Assembly: GCF_053078305.1 (NCBI RefSeq)
Contig: NZ_CP166879.1
DNA length: 64,000 nt
Strand: one strand, 5' to 3'
Notes under the pieces: model-generated
The model's input: only the letters and a program-made list of their open reading frames with translations
The model's database searches: none
What the model was told of the DNA's origin: nothing
Part shown: positions 23,876-53,640 of the stretch, in pieces
Position numbering within the stretch: the stretch's first letter is position 1
Layout: each line of letters starts with the position of its first letter
Program-made: the position numbers and the translations under genes

Positions 23876-23951
23876 GCCCGGATAGCTCAGTCGGTAGAGC
23901 AGGGGATTGAAAATCCCCGTGTCGGTGGTTCGATTCCGCCTCCGGGCACCA
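23876..23951 (+). tRNA. pheU: tRNA-Phe (anticodon GAA), pheU-type locus
   Basis: 76 nt: GCCCGGA acceptor stem pairing with TCCGGGC, D-arm AGCTCAGTCGGTAGAGC, anticodon loop ATTGAAAAT (GAA), T-loop TTCGATT, 3' CCA; followed directly by an integrase gene. Confidence 0.95.
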
Positions 23952-24146: not shown

Positions 24147-25184
24147 TCAAGATTTATTCCCCCCTTTGCAAATCTTGCTCACTGTGCGCTCATCTGTATA
24201 CAAACTCAGGGCATCTTCCAGTGTCTGCGCTGCAGACTCCATACAGACATCAACATACCCCATGGTCGTTGTAAGACTCCTGTGTCCCAGTATGGATTTG
24301 ACCAGATGTAAATTACGTTCAGGATATTTCATCAGTCTGGTTGCCAGCGTATGTCTGAAACGATGTGGTGAAACAGGAAAACCACATTCTCGCGAAAGTC
24401 GCCGGAAAAATGAACGTACGGTCTGATGCGCCCGAACGGGACAGTACTGATATCTGTCGGCAGAGATCGGCTCACTGAAACGACAGACGTCAAAAAGATA
24501 GTCATCATCACCTGCCCCGCACTGACGGGCCCGCTCCAGCAGTTTTTCCATCGATACCTTCAGGGGAGCCACCAGAGGAACGCCCCATTCCCTGTGAGTT
24601 TTACTTCCCTCCAGCTTAAGATCAATTATGCTTTCATCCGGACAGACATCCCTCACACGGATATGCTTCAGTTGATTAAAGCGCATTCCGGTATAACGCA
24701 GAACATCCAGAACTGTCAGCCAGTACCAGGCAGGGTATATAGCATTGCGTCGACGACTATTCACCATGTTCTGCTCTTCCGCTTCTGCAAACCTCTGCAC
24801 AACCAGGTAAACCCTGAGCATCTGATTGTCACTCAGTGTCTTTTTCTTTTTTTCAGTACTCGCAACTGATGCTTCCACCAACGGGTTTTCTGTCTGAGGC
24901 AGCAGTTTCATCTTGATCCCGAATCCCATAATTGCCCGCAAGTGGGCCACCTTGTTATTCCAGGTCACCTCCCTGCGCTTCTGCTCTTTCAGGACATAAC
25001 GCCGGTATCGCTGAACATCACGGACAGTCACCTCCCCCGGCAAAATATCACCGATAAATTCCCTGAATACCCTGACAACTTTGCAGTAGCTCCACTCTGT
25101 ATCCGGCCGAAGATTCTTTGAAAAAAAGTACTCTTCCAGCAGTTGTTCCCAGGTGATTTTTGTGACGGAATCGTCATTCTGCAT
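24147..25184 (-). CDS. Tyrosine-type site-specific integrase (island integrase)
   Basis: Start MQNDDSVTKITWEQLL (ATG 25184); catalytic signatures TGMRFNQL, HRFRHTLATRL and LGHRSLTTTMGYV; adjacent to the tRNA 3' end. Confidence 0.85.
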   Translation of the reverse strand: MQNDDSVTKITWEQLLEEYFFSKNLRPDTEWSYCKVVRVFREFIGDILPGEVTVRDVQRYRRYVLKEQKRREVTWNNKVAHLRAIMGFGIKMKLLPQTENPLVEASVASTEKKKKTLSDNQMLRVYLVVQRFAEAEEQNMVNSRRRNAIYPAWYWLTVLDVLRYTGMRFNQLKHIRVRDVCPDESIIDLKLEGSKTHREWGVPLVAPLKVSMEKLLERARQCGAGDDDYLFDVCRFSEPISADRYQYCPVRAHQTVRSFFRRLSRECGFPVSPHRFRHTLATRLMKYPERNLHLVKSILGHRSLTTTMGYVDVCMESAAQTLEDALSLYTDERTVSKICKGGNKS

Positions 25185-25251
25185 TATATATTCCCCTTGT
25201 TTACTGTGCTCCCGCACTCTCCGGTCAAATTCTGCACATCATCGCCTTTAC

Positions 25252-26739
25252 TCACCCGAAAACAATAAGCGGGCTGTCTCCGGGAACCGTAATATTCCCG
25301 TACAGAAACCTGCCCTTAACCAGATATCCCGAAACCATTTTGTAACGTCCGGAATGTTCTGCGTCACTATAAAGACGGGCCTGAAAAAAACGCTCTCCTG
25401 AACGTACCTTATGGATACCTGCCCGTTCAAAGAGCGACTGAACATAACGACGATCCTGCCCGGAACCACTCTCCTTCAGAAAACGATAAAAAATCCCCGG
25501 GGCACACAGAAAAACATATCCGGAAACAACATGAACATTTGAATCAACGCTGTTAACCGAAAGTGAACCCTCCCTCAGCCCCTCTTTTAACCATCTGATA
25601 AATTCACTCTCTACCCTGCTATCCTCTGTCAGGGAAAACTCTGCCGTTTTTTCCACTGTTTCCGGGATACGGTTTCCCTGATTTTCTGTTACACATCCGC
25701 TCTCTTCCGGTAACTCAATACCGCTTTCTTTATCCGGCGGCACGCCTGACGCTATCTGCCCTCCCTCATCCGACAAATCAGCAGCAGAAAACAGCGTAAG
25801 GAGCATTCCGGTATCAGCATCAGTTTCGTTCCCCTCATCCACCTCCTGTTCCGCTGTCCGGCCCTCATTTTCGGCATCCTCCACTGGCGACTGTACAACC
25901 GGCAACGGCTGAATGACGCTTTCTGCTGAAATTGCTGCTGACTGCAGCAGTACCGGAACAACCTCAGCCACCGGAACTTCGGCCACATCTCCTGCAGCGA
26001 GGGGACTCACGACTTCCTCCATAGCTTCCTGTAATACTGTACGTATCAGTGCCATTTCAGGATGCTGATGCCAGACTGCTCCGGCAAGATTCTGTAATGC
26101 CCCCGGGACAGTGGCAAGCCAGGCTCCCGCCTCTCCGGGCAGCAGTTGTCCCGCCATCAGGGCTGCCAGTTGCCGTCCCTCCGTTCCCTGGCAGGGCATC
26201 TTCCTGAACCGGAACCGGTATACGCCCTCAGGTACAGATATCCCCGGCTGCCAGCATCTGCCGTCGGCCTGTTCGCCTTCCAGTTCCGCCAGCAACGGCA
26301 GGTGATAAAACAGAGCCGACCAGAACACCACCATGTTCCACACACTCCCCTGCGCGGCCTGCTCTTCTGCTGTCGCTCCCGGTGGAAACATTCTGCCTCT
26401 GGCCAGCCGGACAGCATACGTCGTGAACTGCAGGGTCAGGTCACCAAAACCACCGGTGTAACCCCAGCGACCTTCTGCTGTGGCCGGCAGATTCTGACTG
26501 ACAGACAACAACTGATGCACAGGATCAAGACAAAGGCGCTGATACATATCCACCGGCATGGAACTGTTTTCCCATAACTGTTTCAGACACCTTTTCCTGA
26601 ACGGTGTGGATACCAGTACATCAGCCGGCAATGGTGTAAAATACCCCTCCGGCACCGTTTCCCCGGGAATATCCGTCCGGACATCAGAACATTCTGTCTT
26701 CACAGGAAATAACCTTTTCAGGCGTTCAAGCATGCCCAT
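25252..26739 (-). CDS. Hypothetical protein (495 aa) with an acidic low-complexity central region; operon partner of the helicase
   Basis: Long ORF whose start overlaps the stop of the upstream helicase gene by 14 nt; no motif I can assign. Confidence 0.5.
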   Translation of the reverse strand: MGMLERLKRLFPVKTECSDVRTDIPGETVPEGYFTPLPADVLVSTPFRKRCLKQLWENSSMPVDMYQRLCLDPVHQLLSVSQNLPATAEGRWGYTGGFGDLTLQFTTYAVRLARGRMFPPGATAEEQAAQGSVWNMVVFWSALFYHLPLLAELEGEQADGRCWQPGISVPEGVYRFRFRKMPCQGTEGRQLAALMAGQLLPGEAGAWLATVPGALQNLAGAVWHQHPEMALIRTVLQEAMEEVVSPLAAGDVAEVPVAEVVPVLLQSAAISAESVIQPLPVVQSPVEDAENEGRTAEQEVDEGNETDADTGMLLTLFSAADLSDEGGQIASGVPPDKESGIELPEESGCVTENQGNRIPETVEKTAEFSLTEDSRVESEFIRWLKEGLREGSLSVNSVDSNVHVVSGYVFLCAPGIFYRFLKESGSGQDRRYVQSLFERAGIHKVRSGERFFQARLYSDAEHSGRYKMVSGYLVKGRFLYGNITVPGDSPLIVFG

Positions 26740-28216
26740 TCTCCTGAACCCGACCTGATGTGTCGTACCCGGTCCCCCGCAGACCTTCAGTTTTCTGCTG
26801 TTCTTCTGCCAGTTGGTGCATCAGGTCATTCAGTACCAGCGTCCTGAGGGCCCGGGTGACAGCCACATATAACAGACAGGTTTCATCATGACGCTCGGCC
26901 TCCGTCATCAGCGGAACCGTGATATCCTGGAAATCCTCATCCAGCATTACAACCGGCCACTCCAGCCCCTTGCTCCGGTGTGCCGTTGACACCGTGATAT
27001 CTGCATCCTGCTCATTCGTTACCGTATACTGCCGGAGAAGTTCCAGTTTTTTCGGTAACGGAAAACACAACTCCAGAAGCCGAAGGGACTGATTCATCTC
27101 CACATCCTTCGTGGATTTTGCAATATATTTATATTCTTCAAAATTCCTGTAGTCCCGGCGCAGCCTGTCTGAATGCATCCGTTCCGGCATATCAACCTGG
27201 AACCAGTAGAGATCCTCAAGTTCCCCGGTCCTGTAACCTTCGATTCCCCCCACCCAGTAAACCTTTTGCCCTTTCATTGCCGCCATCAGCGCAGTACCAA
27301 TCACACCCGCGACAGTACGACTGAGTACCGTGTAATGCCCCTGCAGATGTTCACGCGCATGGCATTTCAGCAATACCTCATCATCACCACCACAACCTTT
27401 CACCTCTCGTGTTTCACCTTCACGCTGCAGAAGCAGATTTGCCATACGAGCCACCGCCGGACCAAAACGGAAACTCTGTGTCAGCCACAACCGGTCCGCA
27501 TTCTTCAGTGCAGGATGGGAAAGCGCATTATTCGCACCCCGAAAGCGGTAAATCTGTTGATAACAATCTCCAACAAGGACCACCCGACACTTCTGCCCCA
27601 GAACCAGAGCAGTGGTCACCGGATTCGCATCCTGCGCCTCATCAAACAGGATGGTGTCCCATCGGTGAGACAGGTCTGCACCGGACAACTGGAAGAGTTT
27701 CAGATAAGTATCGTGCGTCACCGGGAACGTCCCCCCGGGGTTGCTCATTTCGTTCCAGAGCAACTGCACCGCCCGAAGCGCATCTGCTGGCGGAACACCC
27801 CGCATCTCATCCTTATCCGGCAGGTGATGCAGGCCCGGTACCGCATCAGCAGAACAGATAAAATGATTCAGCCCCGTCCCTGCCACCCGTGCCAGAGCCC
27901 AGTATCGTGTATTCAGCTTTCTCGCCACATCAGTAATACGTAATCCCGGAACCAGCCGATGACGGTAGTGTCTTCCAACCCGGGCATACGCCAGCTGATG
28001 TGACGTTCTGCATTCCACGTTAAAGGGAAATTTACGCTCTGCCTCATCACGTATTGCCCGGTTATAGGCAAGATAGAGCATACGGCTGTCCGGACTGGCC
28101 CGGGCAAACTGCACCAGCGTACTCGTCTTCCCTGTGCCGGAAAACGCATTCACAACCAGTTGCTGCCCCTGCCAGTTAATAATGGCGTACTGTTCATCTG
28201 TGGGATTAAAAGACAT
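26726..28216 (-). CDS. UvrD/Rep-like superfamily 1 DNA helicase
   Basis: Start MSFNPTDEQYAIINWQ (ATG 28216); Walker A GTGKTS, motif II FDEAQD, C-terminal VAVTRA-type motif. Confidence 0.8.
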   Translation of the reverse strand: MSFNPTDEQYAIINWQGQQLVVNAFSGTGKTSTLVQFARASPDSRMLYLAYNRAIRDEAERKFPFNVECRTSHQLAYARVGRHYRHRLVPGLRITDVARKLNTRYWALARVAGTGLNHFICSADAVPGLHHLPDKDEMRGVPPADALRAVQLLWNEMSNPGGTFPVTHDTYLKLFQLSGADLSHRWDTILFDEAQDANPVTTALVLGQKCRVVLVGDCYQQIYRFRGANNALSHPALKNADRLWLTQSFRFGPAVARMANLLLQREGETREVKGCGGDDEVLLKCHAREHLQGHYTVLSRTVAGVIGTALMAAMKGQKVYWVGGIEGYRTGELEDLYWFQVDMPERMHSDRLRRDYRNFEEYKYIAKSTKDVEMNQSLRLLELCFPLPKKLELLRQYTVTNEQDADITVSTAHRSKGLEWPVVMLDEDFQDITVPLMTEAERHDETCLLYVAVTRALRTLVLNDLMHQLAEEQQKTEGLRGTGYDTSGRVQENGHA

Positions 28217-28447
28217 GTATTCTCTTCTCCGGAAAAACATTTCCGTAATCTGATGCATCAGGGGTATGCCCACCACAAATAACTCTGTACAGCAACAGAA
28301 AAATTTCCCTGGTCATATGATGAATTAATCATCGCCATCACACCGGATGCTTCTCATCCTGTCCTCAGAAAGACAGGTGGTCTCCTGTCTGCCGCGCTTA
28401 TCCAGGATACCGGGACCTGAAAGGTCATAATCTGGCAGGAAAAAATA

Positions 28448-30124
28448 ATGTCCGAAGTAAAAAAACACGTTTCTTATTCATTAACAGTTGCAGCTATGCT
28501 GTCAGCCGCCATCGTCTGTCAGACAGCACATGCTGATATCAACACACCGAACATCACCGGAGAAAAAAACAATACAACAACACGATTCTCCGGAAATATT
28601 TACGGCAGTGAAAATACTGTCACATCAGAGTCAAACAGTCTGGTTGTGGGTAACAGTAATTCCGTGGAGGGAGGGTATAACAACATTGTTATTGGTAATT
28701 CCTCCACGGTCAAAGCTTCCGGTTTGATCAGAAAAGTGGGCGAAGATATTGTGCTGGATGGTTACAGCGTCAGCCTCGGTAATGCCACCAGAATTAACGG
28801 TGATTCATCTGTTGCCATAGGTCTGACATCGTCCGTAACCGGGAACGACTCCGTGGCACTGGGCAGTCATTCCAGTGCTAACGGAAACAATATCGTATCC
28901 GTCGGCTCTGACACACTGAAACGCCGCATCACAAATCTGGCACAGGGGAAAGATGACCATGATGCGGTAAATCTGATGCAGATGACCAGTGCTGTTAACC
29001 GGGAAGCTGGAGAAAGAATAAAATCAACAAACAACCTGCAGAATCAGCTTAATACCCTCTCTGGTCAGGTCATAACTGAAACCAGGGCCCGAACAGAAGG
29101 TGATGCAGCAGCGCTGGCTGCAGCCAGAGCCCACAGCGATGAAAACGACAAAAGAACACTGGTCAGTGCGAATACCTATGCTGACCAGAAAGAAACCGCC
29201 ATCAATAACCGTACTGACGGATTACTGACGACCGAACGCCAGGCACGCACCGCAGGCGATACTGCAACTCTGGCTGCTGCCAGAACGCACAGCGATGAAA
29301 ACAACAAAAGAACACTGATCAGTGCGAATACCTATGCTGACCAGAAAGAAACCGCCATCAATAACCGTACTGACGGATTACTGGCTACAGAACGCCAGGC
29401 ACGCACCGCAGGCGATACTGCAACTCTGGCTGCTGCCAGAACGCACAGCGATGAAAACAACAAAAGAACACTGGTCAGTGCGAATACTTATGCTGACCAG
29501 AAAGAAACCGACATCAATAACCGTACTGACGGATTACTGGCTACAGAACGCCAGGCACGCACCGCAGGCGATACTGCAACTCTGGCTGCTGCCAGAACGC
29601 ACAGCGATGAAAACAACAAAAGAACACTGATCAGTGCGAATACCTATGCTGACCAGAAAGAAACCGCCATCAATAACCGTACTGACGGATTACTGACGAC
29701 CGAACGCCAGGCACGCATCGCAGGTGATGCCGCAACTCTGGCAACAGCAGCGGCATACAGTGACGCCGGGGATTCACTGACACTGAAACAGGCAACAGCC
29801 TACAGCGATATCAGTACCCGCCGGGCACTGTCAGAGGCCAATCGTTATACCGACAACAAATTCAGAAACCTGAGCAATAAAATTGAACGGGCAGAAAAAA
29901 GACTTAATGCAGGCATCGCCGGAGTGACAGCAATATCCTCCATCCCCTATGTGGCTGAAAATTCTTTTTCATACGGGATCGGCGTGGGTAACTATCAGAA
30001 CGCTAATGCTGTGGCCGCAGGCATTCAGTATAAAACATCACGTAATACCAATATACGCCTCAACATCTCCTGGGACTCATCTCATAACACCGCGATTGGT
30101 GCAGGGGTTGCCGGCGGCTGGTAA
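28448..30124 (+). CDS. Trimeric autotransporter adhesin (YadA-like; Eib/Saa-like size class)
   Basis: Signal peptide (AAMLSAAIVCQTAHA); head repeats (NSVEGGYNNIVIGNSS, SVAIGLTSSVTGNDSVALG); coiled-coil stalk with tandem repeats; C-terminal YadA anchor ending NISWDSSHNTAIGAGVAGGW. Confidence 0.8.
   Translation: MSEVKKHVSYSLTVAAMLSAAIVCQTAHADINTPNITGEKNNTTTRFSGNIYGSENTVTSESNSLVVGNSNSVEGGYNNIVIGNSSTVKASGLIRKVGEDIVLDGYSVSLGNATRINGDSSVAIGLTSSVTGNDSVALGSHSSANGNNIVSVGSDTLKRRITNLAQGKDDHDAVNLMQMTSAVNREAGERIKSTNNLQNQLNTLSGQVITETRARTEGDAAALAAARAHSDENDKRTLVSANTYADQKETAINNRTDGLLTTERQARTAGDTATLAAARTHSDENNKRTLISANTYADQKETAINNRTDGLLATERQARTAGDTATLAAARTHSDENNKRTLVSANTYADQKETDINNRTDGLLATERQARTAGDTATLAAARTHSDENNKRTLISANTYADQKETAINNRTDGLLTTERQARIAGDAATLATAAAYSDAGDSLTLKQATAYSDISTRRALSEANRYTDNKFRNLSNKIERAEKRLNAGIAGVTAISSIPYVAENSFSYGIGVGNYQNANAVAAGIQYKTSRNTNIRLNISWDSSHNTAIGAGVAGGW
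29132..29755 (+). repeat. Four tandem copies of a 156-bp (52-codon) in-frame repeat inside the adhesin stalk
   Basis: Unit starts at 29132, 29288, 29444 and 29600 (CACAGCGATGAAAAC...), near-identical; encodes HSDENNKRTL(V/I)SANTYADQKETAINNRTDGLL(T/A)TERQARTAGDTATLAAART. Confidence 0.9.
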
Positions 30125-30363
30125 ATAATCTTGCGTACATACGGCATTATGGTATTCCATAATCACATTAATTCAGTACGCAACACAGCCCCATCCGGAA
30201 CAGACCACTGGACTGAGCGGGATAATCAAGGAAAAAGGGCGCGCAGTGAGGTCAGCCTTCACAACAATCCGGCGGCAGATTTCCTGCCGCCGTGTTGCCC
30301 GTTAACATTTAACTTCGTGGGCTGACGTTGCCACAAGCACCGTATTTCCCTGATTTATTCTGT

Positions 30364-30852
30364 TTATTTTATTGTGGATAATGATGCCAATGGCATGAAT
30401 AAAGTTCTTCCGGACTCCGGGAACGCCATAAAGCCATAATGTTTGTAAAATGCGACTGCCGTGTCATCTTTTGCATCAACAATAAGCGCATATGCTGCAA
30501 TTTCAGATGTGTATGCACGATATAGCGCATCAGCTAAAAGTGCTCCCCCAAGCCCCGTTCCTTTTGATGACAGACTTACTGCCAGTCGTCCCATACGAAT
30601 AGCCGGAATAGTGGGATATCGCGGAAGCTTTTTTCTCAAATGCTCAGGTAAGTCAGTTAATAATATACTGGCCGCTGATAACGTATAGTATCCGATGATA
30701 TGATGATCGTTATCTACAGCGACAAAACAGGCCGCGATGCGTCGTCGAATATCCTGTGTGACATGCTCTTTTATGTAACGGTCCAGAGCATCAGAGCCAC
30801 ATAAAAATGAGGTTCTGTCATATGTGCTGTTAAATGGTGTCAGTTGAAACAT
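30364..30852 (-). CDS. GNAT-family acetyltransferase toxin (TacT/KacT/ItaT-like type II toxin)
   Basis: 162 aa with GNAT acetyl-CoA motif GTGLGGALLADAL; immediately downstream of, and co-oriented with, a DUF1778-type antitoxin gene (5-bp gap). Confidence 0.75.
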   Translation of the reverse strand: MFQLTPFNSTYDRTSFLCGSDALDRYIKEHVTQDIRRRIAACFVAVDNDHHIIGYYTLSAASILLTDLPEHLRKKLPRYPTIPAIRMGRLAVSLSSKGTGLGGALLADALYRAYTSEIAAYALIVDAKDDTAVAFYKHYGFMAFPESGRTLFMPLASLSTIK

Positions 30853-30857
30853 TATAT

Positions 30858-31139
30858 TTATTTTGTGTACAGCATATTATTACGGCGTTTAAAGGCCCGT
30901 TTAAGCGCATCATTCGGCTCTGTTGGTGACAGTAATGCCTGAGCAAAAATTTCCTGATCTGTCCGGGACAGTCGGATTATATCGGTTTGTTCGATAGCGC
31001 GTTGGGCCGCATCCTGAACGGCAGCAATGATAAAATCGGTCATAGTGCGCCCCTGGATTTCTGCAGCGCGCTTCAGCATGGCATGTAGTTCTGTGCTGAT
31101 CCTTGCTTCCAGTCGGGCAGTTTGTGTTGCAGATGGCAT
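30858..31139 (-). CDS. DUF1778-type ribbon-helix-helix antitoxin (TacA/KacA-like)
   Basis: 93 aa, RLEARISTELHAMLKRAAEIQGRTMTDFIIAAV (RHH fold), upstream partner of the GNAT gene. Confidence 0.75.
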   Translation of the reverse strand: MPSATQTARLEARISTELHAMLKRAAEIQGRTMTDFIIAAVQDAAQRAIEQTDIIRLSRTDQEIFAQALLSPTEPNDALKRAFKRRNNMLYTK

Positions 31140-31556: not shown

Positions 31557-32132
31557 TCACCGGATATAGGAGAAGGCCGTCGTGACCCGCTTCACTCCGC
31601 TCACCCTACTGGCAACATCTGCTGCCGCTCGCCCTTCCTGCTCTGTAACCAGGCCCAGTAAAAAGACTTCGCTGTTTTCTGTCACCACCTTGACACTGGA
31701 TGATTTGACACGGGCACTTGTGAGTAACTGAGAACGAATTTTTGTCGTAAGCCAGGCATCACCTGCCATTATGACCGGACTGACGGGTGTCCCCTGCCGG
31801 ATTTCATTATAGACCTCCTGAACACCATCGACACCGAGTGCTATCTGACGGGCACGGGCAGATAATTCACGGCCCGGAGACTGACCGATCAGCAGCACGC
31901 GTCCCTGATATGCAATCTCACTGATACGTGCTTCTTTTCTGATTTGTTCATCTTTTGAAAGTGCACTGCTGACCCTCAGCTCCAGCACTTCATCATCCAC
32001 CTGCGCTCCGACACTGCGTGGGTCGGTTGCTGCCTTTGTCCCGACAGCAGCTGTACCCACCACAGCGGCAGCCACGCACCCCTGTAACAATAAGGCTGAA
32101 GTAAGGACAACAGCAGAATATAATAAACGCAT
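31557..32132 (-). CDS. BON-domain outer-membrane lipoprotein, DolP/YraP paralog
   Basis: 191 aa; lipobox LLLQGC then VAAAVVGTAAVGTKAATDPRSVG and two BON-like segments ending VSGVKRVTTAFSYIR; closely resembles core DolP but sits in the island. Confidence 0.8.
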   Translation of the reverse strand: MRLLYSAVVLTSALLLQGCVAAAVVGTAAVGTKAATDPRSVGAQVDDEVLELRVSSALSKDEQIRKEARISEIAYQGRVLLIGQSPGRELSARARQIALGVDGVQEVYNEIRQGTPVSPVIMAGDAWLTTKIRSQLLTSARVKSSSVKVVTENSEVFLLGLVTEQEGRAAADVASRVSGVKRVTTAFSYIR

Positions 32133-32438
32133 ATCTCCCCCGGAATTGTTTTGATTTTTACTTCATATTCCCGGAATTTATCGTACAAAAAGTTTACCTT
32201 CAGTGAAACAAAACAAGCTACAGACTGTTATTATCCTCCGGCACAGCCGGAAACAGCGGATGCGTTACGTGGCATATCTGTATCTGTCAGACGGAAAGAT
32301 TTATATCGGATATGGATGTACTGGAATTTAATATTGATCATGTTTTTTGCACGAAAACTTTGATACCGTCGTAAAGATTCTTTTTTTAACTATCTGGTTC
32401 GCTGAACAGGATCTCCTTTTCGTTATACACAGGCTGAA

Positions 32439-32467
32439 AGGCACCGTGGAGCCCCCGGTGCCTTTTT
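32439..32467. terminator. Hairpin with T tract downstream of the ydcH-like gene (possibly bidirectional)
   Basis: GGCACCG-tggagcccc-CGGTGCC followed by TTTTTC on the plus strand. Confidence 0.35.
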
Positions 32468-32509
32468 CATAAAACAGAGAAAACACGTCTTTGAATATAC
32501 CGTTTATGA

Positions 32510-32737
32510 TTACCGTTCGCCCTTTTCTGACTCATCTTCAAGGATTTTCTGGATTTCTCTTTTGATCTCAAGTTTTTCAAGCTTCAGCCTGACCACTTTC
32601 GTCGAATACGCTGAACCAAATTCATCTTCAATTCTTTTTATTTCGTGATCAAGTTTATTATGCTTTTCAAATAAAGAATCAAAGCGTTTATGATTTCCTT
32701 TCAATGCTGAAATCAGTTCTCTGTACTCCGGGAACAT
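32510..32737 (-). CDS. YdcH-family (DUF465) small protein
   Basis: 75 aa, MFPEYRELISALKGNHKRFDSLFEKHNKLDHEIKRIEDE, resembles E. coli YdcH. Confidence 0.7.
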   Translation of the reverse strand: MFPEYRELISALKGNHKRFDSLFEKHNKLDHEIKRIEDEFGSAYSTKVVRLKLEKLEIKREIQKILEDESEKGER

Positions 32738-33846
32738 TGTTTTTATCTCCTTTCATCAACACTGTAACAATACATATAAACATTAATATTATTAAAGATT
32801 CTCACCATCAATATTCGCAGTGAATAATGCAGCATCTCATATTCACATCCTGCAGAGAAAACCCCTCCGGAGAGGGGTGAGTGTAGCGTAATGGAGTGTT
32901 ATGTAGCATGGTGCCGGGTGCCTCCCGGTGAGTTCAGTATCAGCACCTGAACCCGCACAGATAAGGGATGTGACCAAACACCTACGATACTGATATGCCC
33001 CGCCGCTCAGGGGGATTCACCATGCAGTATTTTTTTAACAAATATCCCGTAAGACCGACAATAATCCACTGACTGAACTGTGAGGTATTTAACATTTACA
33101 GATGACTGACTGTGGTGATCAGAGGTATTACAGTCATCCCCCTGTGGCTGCAGTCCGACCATACCATAACCAGCCATACGTCTTACCCGGAAAGCAAATG
33201 GAGCTTTTTGCCATAAACAACACTCTCCGGCTTCAACAAATGGAGCAGAGAATATCTTCAGAAAGTAACAATCAGTTAAAAACAGATCTTTTTTGTATTC
33301 CGTAAATTTTTCAGAAGAGAAAAAGAATTAATTGTCGCCAACGCCTTCAACAGATCGCATCATCAACGAATGATAACAACCTGAAGGATACCGCGATGGA
33401 GTTGACTGTAGACCTGCTAAAAAACCTTAACAACATCAGACAAAATGCTACTATATATGTTCACGCATACCACTATACTGATGATGAAAAATGCGTTATG
33501 GTGCCACGGATATCTTTACCATCACTGAAATTAACTCCGTTGCAATCAGAAATAATTATTCTGACATCTTCTTAATGGAGTCAATTATATAAGGCACGAC
33601 GGGTATGTTCAGGGATATGAAGAAAAAAATGTGGCAACTTTCACAATACAGGAGGAGGGACACCATCGTTTCAAAGCAGACTTATCACAAAATGGGGAAA
33701 GTGATATAGCCAGCAATGTACTAAATCACTGGCTACATCGTATACATAAAACAGATATCATTGTTCTGTCTGTTGTTCTTACAGAATAAATCCTGTTACC
33801 TCCTGAATGTTACAAGGTTTTATATTTATCCTATGAGCATACGTAC

Positions 33847-34128
33847 GTGAAAACTAATAAAAAAGGCACAACATGGCACATTTTTTACCGTGAAAATTCA
33901 GGCGCGGAAGTTTTGCTTGAAATACCATCATTTCGGGAATGTCTTTCAGTATCTAAAGAATTAATGACCCCATCAAATTACATGATATGCATAGAAAAAA
34001 ATGGCGAAAGAATAAAACGCCGGGACAGGGAAATCATCGCTGGCTCTAACAAATGGATTAACTGCCCACCTGATAACTTCGAAATATCAGGTGAGCTAAT
34101 AACCATTAACAGAATTATTAAAAAGTAA
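33847..34128 (+). CDS. Hypothetical small protein (AT-rich region)
   Basis: 93-aa ORF only; no recognisable motif. Confidence 0.25.
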   Translation: MKTNKKGTTWHIFYRENSGAEVLLEIPSFRECLSVSKELMTPSNYMICIEKNGERIKRRDREIIAGSNKWINCPPDNFEISGELITINRIIKK

Positions 34129-34250
34129 CTCCGGATTCAGACAATGCATTAAGCAAGGCACTATAACAAGCAACGGGTTCATTTTTTGCGGGAGAATGCC
34201 TGTAAGATATCTCTGTGCCAGCACTACCCCTCTATTTTTATAAAACACCT

Positions 34251-34751
34251 TTAACAAACCTCGTCATTCTGATAAACAGAAGCATTCTCCTCATGATGTA
34301 ATTCACCACAGACAGCCCCTTTCCTGTTTAATTTTGCCTGATAGTGTAAATCTGGATATAACTTCACAATATATCGAAGAAACACGGAGTAAGATATATG
34401 ACTGAATAACGCCTCATGCACATTTTTCAGCAAACAACCGGAATTAACCATGAGAGCCATCTCAGAATGTTGTTTCTGCATAAATACAGCAACAGTACTG
34501 CGATTAAAAAGAGCATTTTCATGTAACTCACTTGCATCACGTCTCAGTGAAAATACAAAACCATTCTGTGAAAACGTCAGTTCCGGGTGTTTTTCCTTCA
34601 GTAATCTGTAAATATCTGGCAGTCTCATTCCATCCTTAATCCAGAGTGCAATGGCGTCACGCTCCTGGTTGATTAAGTTTTTTATCTTATTTTTTTCTGG
34701 TATAATCTTACCTTTCATATTATCTCCCTCAGGAACAACAAAGAAGTTCAC
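34251..34751 (-). CDS. Hypothetical protein (AT-rich region upstream of the Type III R-M locus)
   Basis: 166-aa ORF; alternative start MKGKIIPEK; no recognisable motif. Confidence 0.3.
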   Translation of the reverse strand: MNFFVVPEGDNMKGKIIPEKNKIKNLINQERDAIALWIKDGMRLPDIYRLLKEKHPELTFSQNGFVFSLRRDASELHENALFNRSTVAVFMQKQHSEMALMVNSGCLLKNVHEALFSHISYSVFLRYIVKLYPDLHYQAKLNRKGAVCGELHHEENASVYQNDEVC

Positions 34752-34893
34752 ATATACAGAACCAGCTTTGTCTACATACCCGGAATTCAGTAAAGAAACA
34801 TAATCTATAAGACTTACTCACTTTAACAAAACAACATTCCTGGATAAAATAATATCCGATGAAATAATCTCCGCATAAATACATGAGGCTGCC

Positions 34894-35118
34894 ATGACAC
34901 GCAACGCAACGCAACGCAACGCAACGCAACGCAACGCAACGCAACGCAACGCAACGCAACGCAACGCAACGCAACGCAACGCAACGCAACGCAACGCAAC
35001 GCAACAATATGCTCGCCTGAACTCTCTCCGTCAAGTACCTCTACCTCCGTGCTTTCTGGAGGTACTGTATGAATATACGCAACAATCATCTACCGGGAAC
35101 AGAAACTCTTTTTTCTGA
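34894..35118 (+). CDS. Candidate leader ORF containing the pentanucleotide tract and overlapping the mod start
   Basis: ATG 34894 preceded by GAGG (34885-34888); reads MT(RNATQ)x7 through the repeat and ends at 35118, 50 nt beyond the mod ATG; coding status unproven. Confidence 0.35.
   Translation: MTRNATQRNATQRNATQRNATQRNATQRNATQRNATQQYARLNSLRQVPLPPCFLEVLYEYTQQSSTGNRNSFF
34899..35005 (+). repeat. Perfect pentanucleotide simple-sequence repeat (GCAAC)21
   Basis: 21 uninterrupted GCAAC units at 34901-35005 (tract with partial unit starts 34899), ending 63 bp upstream of the mod ATG. Confidence 0.97.
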
Positions 35119-37105
35119 AACTGAAACTGCGAACAGTAAACAACTTGCTGTTTTGAAAACTAACTTTCCACAGTGTTTCGATAAAAACGGAGCTTTCATT
35201 CAGGAAAAGCTGCTTGAGATCATCAGAGCATCAAATGTTGAAATCTCTAAAGAGTCATACTGCTTAAACTGGCTTGGCAAATCCTATGCTCGCCTGCTGG
35301 CTAACCTACCACCAACGACATTGCTGTCAGAAGATAAAGACCATAACCGACGTGAAGAGAACAAGAACAGTCAAAATCTGTTAATCAAAGGGGATAACCT
35401 TGAGGTATTAAAGCATATGGTTAATGCTTATTCTGAAAAGGTTAAAATGATTTATATCGATCCGCCATATAACACGGGTTCTGATGGGTTCGCCTATAAT
35501 GATGATCGCAAATTTACACCAGAACAGCTTTCTGATCTGGCGGGTATCGATCTTGATGAGGCTAAACGTATACTTGAATTTACCACGAATGGTTCAAGCA
35601 GCCATAGCGCATGGTTAACGTTCATTTATCCTCGTTTATATATTGCTCGTGAGCTTCTACGTGAAGATGGTGTGATATTTATTTCGATTGACGAAAATGA
35701 ATTAAATCAACTTAAAACTATTTGTGATGAAATTTTTGGCGAAGCAAATTTCATAGAAAATATTGTATGGAATAAACGTATCCCTAAAAATGATAAGGGT
35801 ATTGGTAATATCCATGAGTACATCCTTGCTTATGCGAAGAATAACGAAATAAGTAAAGAATTTTTAATGCGGAAAGATGGTATTGATGATGTATATCAGT
35901 TTATTGAAAAGTTAAAAAAGGAAAAGGTGCCATTAGATAAAGCAGAGCAGCAACTCAAAAAATTCTACAGCTCCAACGGATATGATCGTGGAATTACTCT
36001 TTACAACGGTTTGAACGAGGATTATAGGCCATGGGGTAAAATTAATATGAGTTGGCCTAATGCAGATTCATTTGGACCCACGTATGAAGTATTGCACCCT
36101 TTGACTAATAACCCTGTCAAAATCCCAGACAGAGGCTGGCGTTGGAAAGAAGGCACTTTTAATCATATTGCAAAAAGAATAGATGGAAAGTATGCAGATA
36201 TCAAAAAACTACATGATGGTAGCGTTATTTGTGGTGGAATTTGGTTTGCCCGTACAGAAAAAACCCAACCCAGTTCGGTTAAATTTTTAGATGAAGTTGA
36301 AGAGTTTTTACTAAGATCAATTATTTCAACTAAAAGTGATGGTGGTGTTGAGGTTGAAAATCTTTTTGGTGGGAAAGGATATTTCTCCTACCCGAAGCCA
36401 ACAAGTTTAATAAAAACACTATTTGGTTCAGTAAGAACCGAAGATAAAGACATTTATCTTGACTTTTTTGCTGGCTCTGGAACTACAGCTCATGGTATTC
36501 TGGAGTTAAATATTGAAGACGGCAGGAAAAGAAACTTCATCTGTGTTCAATTAGATGAAGAAACAGATAAAAAGAAACAAGCCTATAAAGAAGGGTATAA
36601 ATCCATCTTCAATATAACAAAAGACAGAATTATTAAGGCAGGAAAAAAGCTGAAAAAAGATAATCCTAATTATAATGGAGATTTGGGATTTAAAATATTT
36701 GAAACAGTTCATGATTTTCGAGCGAAAGATGAGTCTGAACTTACGCTTTCTAATCTTAGTTTCTTTGACGATGCTGTATTGACACCAGAGCAGTATGACA
36801 CTCTATTGACGACATGGTGCGTGTATGATGGCAGCTTGCTAACAACACCAATTGAAGATATTGACCTTAATGGCTACAAAGCACACTTGTGCGATGGTCG
36901 GCTATATCTAATTGCGCCTAATTTCACAAGTGAGGCTTTGAAAGCTTTACTTCAAAAGCTGGATGCAGACAAAGACTTTGCCCCTAACAAAGTTGTATTT
37001 TATGGCAGCAACTTCGAAAGTGCGAAACAGATGGAACTCAATGAAGCACTAAAAAGTTATGCTAATAAAAAATCTATTGATTTAGATTTGGTGGTAAGGA
37101 ACTAA
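35069..37105 (+). CDS. mod: Type III restriction-modification methyltransferase Mod (N6-adenine)
   Basis: 678 aa; GGAGG Shine-Dalgarno at 35058-35062; motif IV IYIDPPYNTG, motif I FFAGSGTTAHG; followed 2 bp later by res. Confidence 0.9.
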   Translation: MNIRNNHLPGTETLFSETETANSKQLAVLKTNFPQCFDKNGAFIQEKLLEIIRASNVEISKESYCLNWLGKSYARLLANLPPTTLLSEDKDHNRREENKNSQNLLIKGDNLEVLKHMVNAYSEKVKMIYIDPPYNTGSDGFAYNDDRKFTPEQLSDLAGIDLDEAKRILEFTTNGSSSHSAWLTFIYPRLYIARELLREDGVIFISIDENELNQLKTICDEIFGEANFIENIVWNKRIPKNDKGIGNIHEYILAYAKNNEISKEFLMRKDGIDDVYQFIEKLKKEKVPLDKAEQQLKKFYSSNGYDRGITLYNGLNEDYRPWGKINMSWPNADSFGPTYEVLHPLTNNPVKIPDRGWRWKEGTFNHIAKRIDGKYADIKKLHDGSVICGGIWFARTEKTQPSSVKFLDEVEEFLLRSIISTKSDGGVEVENLFGGKGYFSYPKPTSLIKTLFGSVRTEDKDIYLDFFAGSGTTAHGILELNIEDGRKRNFICVQLDEETDKKKQAYKEGYKSIFNITKDRIIKAGKKLKKDNPNYNGDLGFKIFETVHDFRAKDESELTLSNLSFFDDAVLTPEQYDTLLTTWCVYDGSLLTTPIEDIDLNGYKAHLCDGRLYLIAPNFTSEALKALLQKLDADKDFAPNKVVFYGSNFESAKQMELNEALKSYANKKSIDLDLVVRN

Positions 37106-37107
37106 TC

Positions 37108-40020
37108 ATGTCTAAAGGGTTCACATTCGAAAAAAATTTACCTCATCAAAAGGCTGGCGTTGATTCGGTAATGAATGTCTTTGTATCCGCCATACCTCAT
37201 CAGACGGATCATGTTGCAATTCGCCTGTTAGCTAATCCAGAACTGAATCTATCTGAACAACAATACTACAACAACATAAAAAATGTTCAGGAGTTCAATG
37301 GTATTGAGCACTCAAAAGATAATTACGATGCTAAAAGCAACGTAATTGATGTTTCTATGGAGACAGGTACAGGTAAAACTTATACTTACACCAAAACAAT
37401 TTTTGACCTGAACAAATCATTTGGTATTAACAAATTTATCATCATTGTTCCTACCCTATCGATCAAAGCCGGAACCGTTAACTTTTTAAAAAGCGATGCT
37501 ATAAAAGAACACTTTCGAGATGATTACGAGCGTGAACTAAAGACTTACGTTGTTGAAAGTCAGAAAAGTTCGGGTAAAAATACAAAATCGTATATGCCTC
37601 AAGCTATCCATGATTTTGTTGAAGCAAGTAATTTCAATAAGAAATATATACACATTCTTGTGATCAACTCAGGGATGATTAACTCTAAGTCTTTAACTGA
37701 CACTTATGATGTTGGCTTGCTTGATAATCAGTTTGATACCCCATTTTCTGCACTTAGTGCGATAAAACCATTCATTATCATTGATGAGCCTCATAAATTT
37801 CCTACTGGTAAAAAGACATGGGAACATATTCAAAAATTTAATGCCCAATATATCATCCGCTATGGCGCAACCTTTAGTGAAGGCTATAAGAACTTAGTTT
37901 ATCGTCTTACAGCCGTAGATGCCTTCAATGAAGATCTTGTTAAAGGTATTGATGCATACATTGAGGATATAGTTGGTGATGGTAATGCCAACCTCAAGTT
38001 GGTCAAATCTGACGGAAAAGAAGCTACATTTGAACTGAACGAAAATAATAATAAAAAAATTTTTAAGTTAGCCAAAGGTGAATCACTATCTAAGACGCAT
38101 AGTGCGATCCATGATTTAACTCTTGATGCTTTAAATAAGAATACAGCAGTGTTGAGTAATGGTATTGAGCTAAAAATTGGTAGTTCGATAAACCCCTATT
38201 CTTACGATCAGACACTTGCTGATAACATGATGCGTAAAGCTGTCAAAGAACACTTTAAGTTAGAAAAAGAGTATCTGACACAAAGGCCACGCATAAAACC
38301 TCTTACTCTTTTCTTCATTGATGACATTGAAGGCTATCGTGATGGTAATGATATTGCAGGAAGCCTGAAAACTAAGTTCGAAGAATACGTTTTGGCAGAA
38401 GCAAATGAACTGTTAAAAACAGAGAAAGATGAGTTTTACAGAAACTACCTTGAAAAAACTGTTAAGGATATATCTTCTGTTCATGGTGGTTATTTTTCAA
38501 AAGATAATAGTGATAAAGATGATAAAATTGAGCAGGAAATCAACGAAATCCTTCATGATAAAGAGCTTCTATTGTCTTTAGAAAATCCTCGCCGTTTCAT
38601 TTTCTCTAAATGGACGTTGCGTGAGGGATGGGATAACCCAAATGTCTTTCAGATTTGTAAGCTCCGTTCGAGCGGTAGCACCACATCTAAACTTCAGGAG
38701 GTAGGGCGTGGTTTACGTCTTCCAGTGAATGAATACATGTGCCGTGTGAAAAACCGCGATTTTACTCTCAACTATTATGTTGATTTTACGGAAAAAGATT
38801 TTGTTGATTCTCTTGTAAAAGAGGTTAATGATAGTTCTTTCAAAGAAACTGTTCCAGGTAAGTTTACTCAAGAACTTAAGGATAAAATCTTATCTCAGTA
38901 TCCTGAGCTTTCATCCAGAACACTCATGAATGAGATCTTTGATGCTGAAATTATTGATGATAATGAAAACTTCAAAGATTCCGATGCCTATAGCCGTTTA
39001 AAAGCAAAATATCCGGCTGCATTCCCTACCGGGGTGAAACCAACAAAAATAAAAAAAGCCACGGATGGAAAAAAGCGTACTAAAATGCGTATTGGTAAGT
39101 TCAGTGAGTTGAAAGAACTATGGGATTTGATCAATCAAAAAGTAGTAATTGAGTATAAAATAAATAGTGAAAATGAATTCTTATCCATTTTCAAATCATT
39201 CATGATTGAAGAAACAGATAGATTTACTAAATCAGGTGTTCATACTCGCATTGATAGAATTTATATTCATAATGATACGGCGATGTCGAAAAGTATCGTC
39301 AGTGACGATGATAACTTTGCTAAACTAAACACAATGAGCTATCGGGAATTTCTTGATAACTTATCACAAACTATTTTTGCTAAACACGATACCTTACATA
39401 AGGTTTTTTGTGATATAAAAGACACTATCAATATCACCGACTACCTGAACATTCAGACAATCAGAAAGATTAAATCTGGGTTTAGCAAGTATTTGTTGAA
39501 CAATTCATTTAACAAATTCAGCCTTGGATATAATGTAATTTCAGGCTCAATTCATCCTACAAAATTCACTAATGCAGACGGTAATCACCTGCATGAGGTA
39601 TTATCAGGTGATCTTGGAGTATTACAGGATAATACAAAAGCCCCCCTAGACTCTTATCTTTTTGAAGAAGTTTTTTATGATTCAGAGCTTGAAAGACTCA
39701 ATATAACAGACGGAGAGATCCACTCTGTTGCTGTTTTTACAAAGATACCGAAAAACTCAATTAAAATTCCAGTGGCAGGTGGATACACATATTCTCCTGA
39801 CTTTGCTTATGTTGTAAAAACAACAAAGGGTGACTACCTTAACTTTATTATTGAAACAAAAAATGTCGAAGGTAAAGAAAGTTTACGTAAAGAAGAACTG
39901 GATAAAATAAAGCATGCACAAAAACTTTTCGAACAGGTAAGTAAATCTGTAAAAGTAACTTTTATAACTCAATTCTCAGGTGACAGAATCCATGATCTGA
40001 TAAAAAATGTGATTCAGTAA
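37108..40020 (+). CDS. res: Type III restriction enzyme Res subunit (SF2 helicase-like ATPase/nuclease)
   Basis: 970 aa; Walker A TGTGKTYT, DEAH-like IIIDEPHKF; tightly coupled to mod. Confidence 0.9.
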   Translation: MSKGFTFEKNLPHQKAGVDSVMNVFVSAIPHQTDHVAIRLLANPELNLSEQQYYNNIKNVQEFNGIEHSKDNYDAKSNVIDVSMETGTGKTYTYTKTIFDLNKSFGINKFIIIVPTLSIKAGTVNFLKSDAIKEHFRDDYERELKTYVVESQKSSGKNTKSYMPQAIHDFVEASNFNKKYIHILVINSGMINSKSLTDTYDVGLLDNQFDTPFSALSAIKPFIIIDEPHKFPTGKKTWEHIQKFNAQYIIRYGATFSEGYKNLVYRLTAVDAFNEDLVKGIDAYIEDIVGDGNANLKLVKSDGKEATFELNENNNKKIFKLAKGESLSKTHSAIHDLTLDALNKNTAVLSNGIELKIGSSINPYSYDQTLADNMMRKAVKEHFKLEKEYLTQRPRIKPLTLFFIDDIEGYRDGNDIAGSLKTKFEEYVLAEANELLKTEKDEFYRNYLEKTVKDISSVHGGYFSKDNSDKDDKIEQEINEILHDKELLLSLENPRRFIFSKWTLREGWDNPNVFQICKLRSSGSTTSKLQEVGRGLRLPVNEYMCRVKNRDFTLNYYVDFTEKDFVDSLVKEVNDSSFKETVPGKFTQELKDKILSQYPELSSRTLMNEIFDAEIIDDNENFKDSDAYSRLKAKYPAAFPTGVKPTKIKKATDGKKRTKMRIGKFSELKELWDLINQKVVIEYKINSENEFLSIFKSFMIEETDRFTKSGVHTRIDRIYIHNDTAMSKSIVSDDDNFAKLNTMSYREFLDNLSQTIFAKHDTLHKVFCDIKDTINITDYLNIQTIRKIKSGFSKYLLNNSFNKFSLGYNVISGSIHPTKFTNADGNHLHEVLSGDLGVLQDNTKAPLDSYLFEEVFYDSELERLNITDGEIHSVAVFTKIPKNSIKIPVAGGYTYSPDFAYVVKTTKGDYLNFIIETKNVEGKESLRKEELDKIKHAQKLFEQVSKSVKVTFITQFSGDRIHDLIKNVIQ

Positions 40021-47515: not shown

Positions 47516-47773
47516 AGGTGGGCAGATTTACCACCACCAGAAACATCCTGGCTGCACATCCCCTTTCAGGTTACGGGGGTGTTGATCACCCGAAGGCGTT
47601 CCTCTCAGATCAACGGAACATTGGTGCCCACCGAAGCGGGATGTGGTCACCCGAAGGCGCTCCTCTCAGACCACTTATGGAGCATTGGTGGTCGCCGAAG
47701 CGACATGTAGCCACCCGAAGGCGCTCCTCTCAGGCCACTTGTGGAGCATTGGTGGTCGCCGGAGCGACATATA
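47449..47773. repeat. Direct repeat copy 1 (about 325 bp) with three degenerate tandem ~63-bp sub-units
   Basis: Near-identical to 49782-50038 over about 255 bp; sub-units begin CACCCGAAGGCG(C/T)TCCTCTCAG at about 47584, 47647 and 47711. Confidence 0.9.
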
Positions 47774-49781: not shown

Positions 49782-50038
49782 TGCCCGTAATAAAGGGCGC
49801 GGTTAAAAGAAACCTTCATCGTCATGACTGACGATATCTGCTCTCAAAGGTGGGCAGATTTACCACCACCAGAAACATCCTGGCTGCACATCCCCTTTCA
49901 GGTTACGGGGGTGTTGATCACCCGAAGGCGTTCCTCTCAGATCAACGGAACATTGGTGCCCACCGAAGCGGGATGTGGTCACCCGAAGGCGCTCCTCTCA
50001 GACCACTTATGGAGCATTGGTGGTCGCCGAAACGACAG
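49782..50038. repeat. Direct repeat copy 2 (about 255 bp, two ~63-bp sub-units)
   Basis: Matches 47449-47705 nearly base for base; diverges after GGTCGCCGAA. Confidence 0.9.
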
Positions 50039-50385
50039 ATAATGTATTCTGAGCATATCAGAGCGCATAAAAGGCGTCAATTATCCATGCTCCCTCACGA
50101 AACAGAAGCTGAACTCTTAACACCTGCTATCGGAACTCACTGAATAAACAACTAAAAAGGACATTGTGAAAATTAACATCAACAGTATGTAAAGTGATTT
50201 GTTTTGTCTTAAATGGGTGAATGTAAAAAAATATTCTATACAATCCACACATCCTTGTATCATATATCAAGTAAACATCCACAGAGATAACAGCTTATTT
50301 CAAATAAGCAGATTCTGTTTGATACTTCAGAAAAATAGTATATGCTCCTGATTTACTGATGTTATAAGTTATACAGGATAGTTAA

Positions 50386-51342
50386 ATGTGTGATTTTATA
50401 AAATCATGTTATGCAGCACCAAGAATTAACAAAATGGCTGATTTTTTCTCATCAACAGCATCTGGAGTAAAACATAAACCTTTGAAGCATGTAAAAATTG
50501 ATAACAGGCTTTTCCCATCTCCTGAGTATATAATTTTTTCTGACTATCTTACGAAAAACAGTGGTCCATTTGTTAACCACTACTTTTGCAGTATTCCATA
50601 CAGCAAAGAAGAAGAATGCAGGCTGGGTGTGACTATTATGAAATATGCAAGCCATCGAAATAAGCCATTGAGCTTATGGTGTCTTGGAATGGCAGAAGGA
50701 GCCATGGCCAGAACAATTTCTCAACTATCAAAAGGACAGGTTTTATCATTAACAACCAGCCCAACAAAAGAAAATGAACCTGTATTCTTTAGTCATGGTT
50801 CTCATATTCACTCTTACTTTATTTGCTCCCCATTCTTTCTTGTTCATGAAGAAATAAAAAATAACAACCCTGAACTATTTCCTCATGGTTTTGATATTAT
50901 AATAGAAGATACAACGTTTCAGATGTATTCTCCCGACAGAGAACAACAAATAAAACATGTAAAAAAAACATTAAAATACGATGGTATTTTCATTTTCACA
51001 GAGAAATTTTCCACCTCCACAAAAGAATATCAGATTAGAGAATATCAAAAAGATTTTTCATTTAAACAAAGATATTTTTCACAAGATGAAATAGACGCAA
51101 AAAAAGAAAACGTTCTTAATATCATGAATTTAAATGAAGTAACTCTCGAAAGAATGATTACAGCCATTAAGTCACATTTTAAATATTATTCTGTCTACTG
51201 GAATAGTGGTAATTTCTATTCAATAGCTGCCAGCAATTCGCAAAAAAACATTTCTGACTTTATAATGTTGCTTCCTGAGGCAGCCATACCTATGGAGTAT
51301 GTTTATTTTAAGGTTCCAACCAGAATAACAGGAGTTATATAA
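50386..51342 (+). CDS. Hypothetical protein with possible class I SAM-dependent methyltransferase fold (low-GC islet)
   Basis: 318 aa; glycine-rich LWCLGMAEGAM, acidic FDIIIED and DGIFIF segments are consistent with a Rossmann methyltransferase but weakly; AGGA Shine-Dalgarno; very AT-rich. Confidence 0.4.
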   Translation: MCDFIKSCYAAPRINKMADFFSSTASGVKHKPLKHVKIDNRLFPSPEYIIFSDYLTKNSGPFVNHYFCSIPYSKEEECRLGVTIMKYASHRNKPLSLWCLGMAEGAMARTISQLSKGQVLSLTTSPTKENEPVFFSHGSHIHSYFICSPFFLVHEEIKNNNPELFPHGFDIIIEDTTFQMYSPDREQQIKHVKKTLKYDGIFIFTEKFSTSTKEYQIREYQKDFSFKQRYFSQDEIDAKKENVLNIMNLNEVTLERMITAIKSHFKYYSVYWNSGNFYSIAASNSQKNISDFIMLLPEAAIPMEYVYFKVPTRITGVI

Positions 51343-51346
51343 TCCC

Positions 51347-51922: not shown

Positions 51923-52070
51923 TATGCCGTCAGGGTGTGCTTCCTTACATATCACGCCCTCTTCCAGACGTCGCTGGTCGTCGCCCTCTGCGTCCCTTAC
52001 TTTCAGCCCCTCTGAGCATAATCGCCCCTCCAGAGGAGCCCATCACAACGACAATGCCAGCGGGTTAATT

Positions 52071-53620: not shown

Positions 53621-53640
53621 ATTTTAGAAAAGGGAAATTT

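Follow-up and report, generated by a model that had tools for sequence, protein, structure and literature searches.

We examined a stretch of 64,000 nucleotides of Escherichia coli chromosome from NCBI RefSeq assembly GCF_053078305.1 (contig NZ_CP166879.1; we call the whole stretch the window and number positions from its first letter). The gene at 28448-30124 on the plus strand encodes a trimeric autotransporter adhesin (TAA) whose stalk contains four tandem, in-frame units of 156 bp. It is highly probable, in our judgement, that this is a functional TAA, that a genomic island at a tRNA-Phe gene carries it with the integrase, relaxase and helicase genes as its fixed companions, and that its stalk is resized by whole units. 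At the same locus, complete E. coli genomes carry four, three or two of the units. An earlier reading of the DNA letters (the original prediction) had proposed the adhesin and had expected the units to be gained and lost.

The gene is an ATG-started open reading frame (ORF) of 558 codons plus a stop, and its coordinates in the ORF list exactly match those of the original prediction. By exact look-up, the protein is WP_044192258.1 (KFD74025.1), which RefSeq names "YadA-like family protein." Residues 1-29 (28448..28534) are a putative Sec signal peptide (MSEVKKHVSYSLTVAAMLSAAIVCQTAHA, followed by D), judged by eye from the translation, with a basic N-region, a hydrophobic core and an AHA motif. 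The head (residues ~30-158, 28535..28921) is made of YadA-type left-handed beta-roll repeats. It contains a Pfam YadA_head domain (PF05658, residues 117-142) and a weak match to LbR_Ice_bind (residues 53-143), and a low-confidence structure model (see below) has strands there. In the Protein Data Bank (PDB), the head and neck match SadA fragments (2yo0 and 2yo3), the YadA head (1p9h), BpaA (3s6l) and BpaC. The neck, RRITNLAQGKDDHDAVNLMQM, and a unique proximal stalk follow (residues 159-222, 28922..29113), with Pfam YadA_stalk (PF05662) at residues 160-199 and the necks of SadA in 2yo0 and 2yo3 as matches. Next comes the four-unit array, which is the variable part of the stalk (residues 223-430, 29114..29737). 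A unique distal stalk (residues 431-500, 29738..29947) leads into the anchor; it matches YadA stalk fragments at residues 443-499 (3h7x, 3lt6, 3lt7 and 3h7z) and has three YxD-type 15-residue repeats (AYSD, AYSD and RYTD, spaced as read from the translation). The membrane anchor (residues 501-558, 29948..30121) has a Pfam YadA_anchor domain (PF03895, residues 503-554, E=2.7e-8), and this C-terminal part of the protein matches the anchors of AtaA, YadA and Hia. Anchors of this type contribute four strands per chain and end in an aromatic residue, and the last residues here are ...GGW. With a signal peptide, a passenger that has head repeats, neck and stalk, and a YadA-type anchor, the gene is confirmed from its sequence features as encoding a TAA of the YadA-like (Oca) group, with type Vc secretion and a surface homotrimer as the predicted form. 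The Pfam domains and the matches to SadA, YadA, BpaA/BpaC, AtaA and Hia thus bear out this part of the original prediction. A literature search by accession and by island and adhesin terms found no name for the protein.

Tandem Repeats Finder (TRF) reports a single array within this ORF (29114-29742, period 156, 4.0 copies, 95% matches, no indels, score 1132), and it is the only long-period array in the window. Similarity at an offset of 156 bp spans ~29098 to 29748, and the 156 bp on the 3' side of the array are unrelated to the units (~33% identity). As the period equals 52 codons, the units (29114-29269, 29270-29425, 29426-29581 and 29582-29737, 156 bp each) all stay in frame. In the phase that begins at 29114, their translations are, in order, LAAARAHSDENDKRTLVSANTYADQKETAINNRTDGLLTTERQARTAGDTAT, LAAARTHSDENNKRTLISANTYADQKETAINNRTDGLLATERQARTAGDTAT, LAAARTHSDENNKRTLVSANTYADQKETDINNRTDGLLATERQARTAGDTAT and LAAARTHSDENNKRTLISANTYADQKETAINNRTDGLLTTERQARIAGDAAT. 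Any two of them differ in 2-5 of 52 residues and in 3-10 of 156 nucleotides (93.6-98.1% identity). Perfect direct repeats reach 118 bp at most when the offset is 156 and 150 bp when it is 312, and an array of such length and identity cannot be of chance origin. TRF and the unit comparison agree with the original prediction on four in-frame units of 156 bp in the stalk. It had set the array at 29132-29755, which is the same array in another phase with a 3' end that overshoots by about 7-13 bp, and it had called the copies both near-identical, which they are, and perfect, which they are not.

To survey unit number, we compared the gene by megablast with 5426 complete E. coli genomes. [quoted passage not shown] We counted units from the aligned span, which falls short of the query by 0, 156 or 312 bp: nine genomes have four units (H1-H8 and H10), 12 have three (H9, H11 and H13-H22), and one has two (H12, strain STEC1585). 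The annotated coding sequences in nine loci that we fetched (1677, 1521 or 1365 bp) agree with four, three and two units. In the protein collection, full-length forms have 402, 454, 506 or 558 amino acids, and the gaps in their alignment are whole 52-residue units only. The 402-residue form has one unit and is present on a 5.1-Mb contig. There was no form longer than 558 residues among the cluster members examined. The allele in the window is among the longest known. A second allele lineage, which is ~87% identical, has one-, two- and three-unit forms of its own and varies independently; one of its members is annotated as coming from Salmonella enterica serovar Virchow (P0249). The gain and loss of units that had been predicted is thus seen, both as protein alleles and as two to four units at one locus in complete genomes. 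The original prediction had named a repeat number fixed across strains as the observation that would count against it, and the number is not fixed. Because whole units are multiples of three bases, on/off switching is not expected, and we rejected on/off phase variation of the gene: changes in unit number stay in frame.

The units also differ from the rest of the gene in how they evolve. Between alleles, the non-repeat parts differ at only 0-9 of 666 and 0-4 of 387 nucleotides. For example, the four-unit allele in the window and the two-unit allele of STEC1585 differ at 0 and 2 sites in these parts. Nucleotide diversity is 0.019 in the first units and 0.028 in the last units, versus 0.007 and 0.004 in the flanks (3-7 times as high). 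There are 29 variable sites in the units, which recur in differing combinations, and when the units are pooled, 77 of 171 informative pairs of sites have the four-gamete pattern. Two loci (L007 and L008) have identical flanks and different unit content. Within an allele, units are 2-10 nucleotides apart, against 16-26 nucleotides between lineages, a sign of concerted evolution. A 5' signature is retained in first units and a 3' signature in last units, so exchange takes place in the interior of the array. Unequal crossing-over, slippage and conversion between units would be expected to leave such a mosaic; the exact pathway, whether it depends on RecA or not, is presumed.

The ORF is intact in all of the fetched loci. 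When the two lineages are compared, 350 non-repeat codons give a ratio of non-synonymous to synonymous substitution rates (dN/dS) of 0.22 (head 0.27, distal stalk 0.13), and the anchor has zero non-synonymous changes (dN/dS 0). As judged from these comparisons, the gene is under purifying selection and its function has been retained. In the pooled units, the corresponding ratio for polymorphisms (pN/pS) is 0.35, which means that the units are constrained, without diversifying selection.

These results suggest how the protein may be built and resized. Three chains together would make up a head (a short beta-roll), a neck, a stalk that is long and helical, and a 12-stranded anchor in the outer membrane, and the middle of the stalk would be built from 52-residue units, each homologous to the 37-residue repeat of the adhesin Saa plus a 15-residue segment. 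Perfect tracts shared between units reach 118-150 bp, so that whole units would be gained or lost through unequal homologous recombination or replication slippage; conversion would shuffle a few polymorphisms among them; and the outcome would be a set of alleles with one to four units, all in frame. At ~0.15 nm per helical residue, each unit would put the head ~7.7 nm further out, and the helical part would measure ~25 nm with one unit and ~48 nm with four. The trimeric coiled-coil geometry, display on the surface, an adhesive or autoaggregative function and an effect of length on phenotype are all predictions of this model. By analogy with Saa, autoaggregation and adherence to epithelial cells are the most likely activities.

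Several results weigh against this picture. An AlphaFold2 model of the monomer has low confidence (predicted local distance difference test 45, predicted template-modelling score 0.20), and we used it for secondary structure only. It shows the head as strands and residues ~170-493 as one long helix that is interrupted for 2 residues at each unit's GD, which weakly suggests that the units are helical. When the array alone was compared with the PDB, there was no significant match (just chance hits to GAPDH at E ~0.06), which leaves the unit without a homologue of solved structure. For a single unit, the top peak of hydrophobic periodicity was at 3.47 residues, which 19% of shuffled sequences reached and which is not significant; a register of 15+37 residues, which would fit ~3.7 residues per turn, is a reading by hand and only a suggestion. 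A promoter scan of the 171-nucleotide intergenic region upstream of the gene found no convincing sigma-70 site. Finally, most unit counts outside of the complete genomes come from short-read drafts, and many of these contigs are broken inside the array, so population frequencies of unit number are unreliable. The coiled-coil stalk of the original prediction is nevertheless well founded: we infer it from the position of the units, the low-confidence helical model and the architecture of TAAs.

If whole-unit resizing is accepted, the differences in length might still have no functional consequence. In that case, variation in unit number would be a neutral by-product of a recombination-prone sequence, without adaptive tuning. 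This is a serious possibility, although we consider it less likely than not. Alleles with two, three and four units coexist with almost identical heads and anchors; in the complete genomes, there is no obvious link to host or source, as human, bovine and food isolates are found in both the three-unit and the four-unit groups; and the pN/pS of 0.35 gives no sign of diversifying selection in the units. On the other hand, the units are kept in frame and are constrained, and their number has a narrow range (one to four, with none longer among the members examined), which may mean that there are limits on length.

Another set of questions arises from where the gene lies. It is on a chromosomal island, at the end marked by a tRNA-Phe gene (23876..23951, plus strand; identified by ARAGORN, Rfam and the annotation of locus L001), which is the insertion site and adjoins dsbD and dicD/yjdC. 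After the tRNA come the tyrosine integrase of the island (24147..25217, minus strand; NCBIfam and the RefSeq annotation of homologous loci), a relaxase of the MobH / PFGI-1-class TraI type (25252..26739, minus strand; NCBIfam TIGR03760, 210.5 bits versus a cut-off of 161.4), a UvrD-like helicase (26726..28276, minus strand; NCBIfam and the annotation of related loci), the TAA gene, a TacT/TacA-type pair, a paralogue of DolP, and STnc100. The run from integrase to TAA is constant in all related loci, with the helicase gene always directly upstream of the TAA gene and divergent from it, and the cargo varies. In strain 2012EL-2448 (L001), for example, the island carries a four-unit allele together with the subAB subtilase cytotoxin genes (38073-39555) and a cluster for sialic-acid utilization. 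In the second lineage, a module of integrase, relaxase, helicase, TAA, TacAT and BON genes carries the Kiwa defence genes KwaA/KwaB as cargo (L010-L012), and this Kiwa-carrying module is found at two sites: the tRNA-Phe beside dsbD and a pheV-like site by genes for ornithine/lysine decarboxylase and DUF554. There is no second copy of the 3' end of tRNA-Phe in the window, so the island extends past position 64000 or its distal repeat has been lost.

This setting raises the possibility that the TAA mainly serves the mobile element, as an autoagglutinin or a mating-aggregate adhesin which would aid transfer by bringing donor and recipient cells into contact, and that host adhesion is secondary. 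The TAA gene is constantly beside the integrase, MobH relaxase and helicase, even as the cargo (subAB and nan genes, type III restriction-modification, Kiwa) and the insertion sites differ. Furthermore, all relatives that share the stalk unit and have a readable context are surrounded by transfer genes: on an IncX3 plasmid, after VirB11/Cag12/TrbM, or elsewhere between a coupling protein with TrbM and PcfJ/TopB, beside TraU and TraG_N, or after VirB8-B11. Just upstream of three of these TAAs is a gene for TrbM/KikA/Pep, proteins that are described as adhesin-like enhancers of conjugation (PMC13311141). Saa, the closest characterized relative, is plasmid-borne and autoaggregating (PMC7247748). 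Against this, the support is gene context alone, and adhesins are common as cargo of mobile elements; our literature search found no TAA that acts in conjugation; and here the TAA gene is divergent from the transfer genes, with no mating-pore genes visible in the window. We consider a primary role in transfer unlikely. We would be equally hesitant about its extension, in which TAAs with Saa-like units would form a small family of mobile-element accessory adhesins that aggregate donor and recipient, and unit number would tune their reach relative to O-antigen, capsule and conjugative pilus.

We think it quite improbable that the array serves mainly for antigenic variation, in which the shuffling of residues would alter exposed epitopes and length would be secondary. 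It is true that 12 of the 52 positions vary, with variants reshuffled among units and alleles, and that L007 and L008 differ in unit content between identical flanks. But the pN/pS of 0.35 leaves no excess of amino acid changes, the substitutions are mostly conservative (A/T, D/N, I/V and T/A), and there are just ~24 distinct units among 26.

Last, it is very improbable that assembly artefacts caused by collapse or expansion of repeats account for the differing unit numbers or for the four units in the window. It is true that the 90% cluster of the window's protein (345 members) is made up mostly of partial proteins whose contigs stop within the array, and the two-unit form P0022 is by far the commonest in drafts (1067 blocks of the assembly collection, mostly on contigs of 20-200 kb) yet is found in one of 22 complete genomes, but alleles with four, three and two units are found in independently finished chromosomes, two contigs, one of them 5.9 Mb long, encode exactly the 558-residue protein, P0022 matches the protein from the complete STEC1585 genome residue for residue and is not a collapse product of any three- or four-unit allele that we fetched, and one-unit forms lie on the 5.1-Mb contig. 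The practical consequence is that unit number in this gene should not be trusted in short-read assemblies, which calls for caution when adhesin genes are typed from drafts.

Resizing of a TAA stalk by whole units remains the best account of the gene, and we now describe the rest of its surroundings. A GC-rich hairpin of 10 pairs (30270..30292, strand not assigned), which is 146 nucleotides 3' of the stop codon, was found in a scan for terminator-like structures and is a candidate terminator. It sits within a ~100-bp remnant of a hok locus (30224-30323), which by megablast and annotation shares 90% identity with hok loci on IncI-type STEC plasmids, in their 3' end and the region downstream; the remnant contains no Hok ORF. 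Further on are the TacT/TacA-type toxin-antitoxin pair (30364-31139, minus strand), which comprises a TacT-like GNAT toxin of 162 amino acids and a TacA/DUF1778 antitoxin, and the paralogue of the lipoprotein DolP (31557-32132, minus strand; BON domains, 295 bits). Both accompany the TAA in many islands. Several strains have another, different YadA-like gene (~425 amino acids) ~1.4 kb downstream of the TAA gene (at 5285.. in L004, 5129.. in L005, 4973.. in L006 and 5764-7041 in L015). This gene is not in the window, where the toxin-antitoxin pair and the DolP paralogue are found instead. The small RNA STnc100 (32852-33054, minus strand) is a full-length match to Rfam RF02076 (138.7 bits versus a gathering score of 47).

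The cargo further along the island includes a type III restriction-modification system with its mod ORF at 35069-37105, the gene for the siderophore receptor IreA (ireA, 53554-55689) and, beside ireA, a second and larger TAA (56330-60694, plus strand; 1454 amino acids, with EmaA/Ata-like repeats and a YadA-type anchor). The two TAAs in the window are alike in the anchor only. A first guess that this was the Locus of Adhesion and Autoaggregation (LAA) island is unsupported, as the cargo (type III restriction-modification, ireA and the large TAA) differs. Upstream of mod there is a perfect (ACGCA)x21.4 tract (34899-35005), which lies inside a short ORF that starts from the ATG at 34894 and has GAGG upstream. 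With 21 ACGCA repeats, this ORF reaches ~35113 and overlaps the mod start at 35069; with one more repeat, it stops just past the tract; and with one fewer or two more, it ends in a TGA that overlaps the ATG of mod (ATGA). The tract could provide phase-variable control of the type III methyltransferase via the upstream ORF. The tract region had no megablast match in the 5426 complete E. coli genomes. Elsewhere, there is a 64-bp repeat (2.9 copies, 86% identity) at 47587-47770, and the segments at 32000-40000, around the restriction-modification genes, and at 50000-52000 are markedly AT-rich (GC 0.33-0.40).

STEC without the enterocyte effacement locus (LEE-negative STEC) do not have intimin, and their means of attachment are only partly known. 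The TAA is a candidate attachment factor for the study of STEC adhesion, and some of the islands that carry it also have the genes for subtilase cytotoxin. Together with the relatives among transfer genes, the kinship of its unit with the Saa repeat also leads to a concrete hypothesis, which can be tested, as to why adhesins of this kind are found on mobile elements.

How does this protein compare with known adhesins? The E. coli TAAs that reviews list as characterized are Eib, Saa, UpaG and EhaG (PMC7247748). Saa, the STEC autoagglutinating adhesin of pO113-type plasmids, is like the protein described here in being a TAA of LEE-negative STEC with a YadA-type anchor, in the size range of 497-558 amino acids, and in having a stalk of about four near-identical tandem units whose number differs between strains (PMC7247748). 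The units are homologous and share the motif xGDxxTL...ANxYTxxQ...N..T....L..E...AR. However, the two proteins are only 33% identical, over the stalk and anchor alone (residues 252-558), and their N-terminal heads are unrelated. The Saa unit has 37 amino acids (111 bp; 3.8 copies at 99% identity), and the 52-residue unit here equals those 37 plus an insert of 15 residues, AAARTHSDENNKRTL, that has no counterpart in Saa. Also, Saa is on a large virulence plasmid, in contrast to the chromosomal tRNA-Phe island. We rejected the identification of this protein as Saa, since whole-protein identity, a 37-residue unit and a plasmid location are all lacking. The same source describes Saa as varying in size between strains, as plasmid-borne and as the cause of autoaggregation (PMC7247748). 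The original prediction had added that repeat number is known to alter function in Saa and Eib: for Saa, size variation is documented there, and for Eib, we found no support in the literature.

The best full-length relative that we found is an uncharacterized TAA from the Salmonella IncX3 plasmid pLG26p3 (WP_153789837.1), which is 40% identical across residues 63-558. Its head, neck, stalk and anchor follow the same plan, and the gene is also on a mobile element with transfer genes adjoining. Its unit has 48 amino acids (144 bp; 4.9 copies) and the copies are more diverged (88% matches); the gene lies within the type IV secretion cluster of the plasmid. The 52-residue unit, the 37-residue Saa unit and the Salmonella unit, which is 4 residues shorter, align as a single motif. 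Searched against 1.84 billion representatives, a profile of the unit found just 95 proteins with E <= 0.001, and about ten of these match the full unit. These relatives include 37-residue units (in P0137, P0139 and P0143) and diverged 52-residue units (in P0135, P0138 and P0141). Given these diverged relatives, the unit type is old, and it is the recent homogenization of the copies that is special here.

YadA of Yersinia has the same domain plan, and solved YadA fragments align with the distal stalk (443-499) and the anchor, but it is without a 156-bp array. We rejected YadA itself because the protein scores 106 bits against NCBIfam NF033478, which has a cut-off of 750. The Eib proteins are TAAs of similar size in LEE-negative STEC. 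The similarity to them is in the anchor only (38.6% over residues 445-558, in a Shiga toxin phage record), and Eib genes are prophage-borne, whereas the gene here is on an integrative island. No Eib structure was among the PDB sequence matches of the protein. With neither passenger similarity nor a prophage location, we rejected Eib as well.

Outside of these groups, Cha (from the Haemophilus cryptic genospecies), BadA and UspA2 are TAAs with tandem peptide repeats in the passenger, and the count of these repeats differs from strain to strain or within a strain; the units have no sequence relationship to the one described here. Such variation has been linked to exposure of the head and to adhesion (PMC9704523, which cites Sheets & St Geme 2011 for Cha; PMC8859334 for BadA), and PMC9704523 notes that repeat number in TAAs is correlated with exposure of the head and with adhesion or biofilm formation. 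The Periscope proteins likewise have highly identical DNA repeats in the stalk whose number varies between strains, which is also what we found. Their repeats are monomeric, independently folding domains, in contrast to the helical segments of a presumed trimeric coiled coil, and the definition of the class excludes TAAs (PMC9704523). This TAA behaves as a Periscope protein does, although it does not belong to that class. Overall, it is a real and ordinary feature: a TAA of a known, variable-length kind with an unsurprising mechanism, and a fifth, unnamed TAA of E. coli beside Eib, Saa, UpaG and EhaG.

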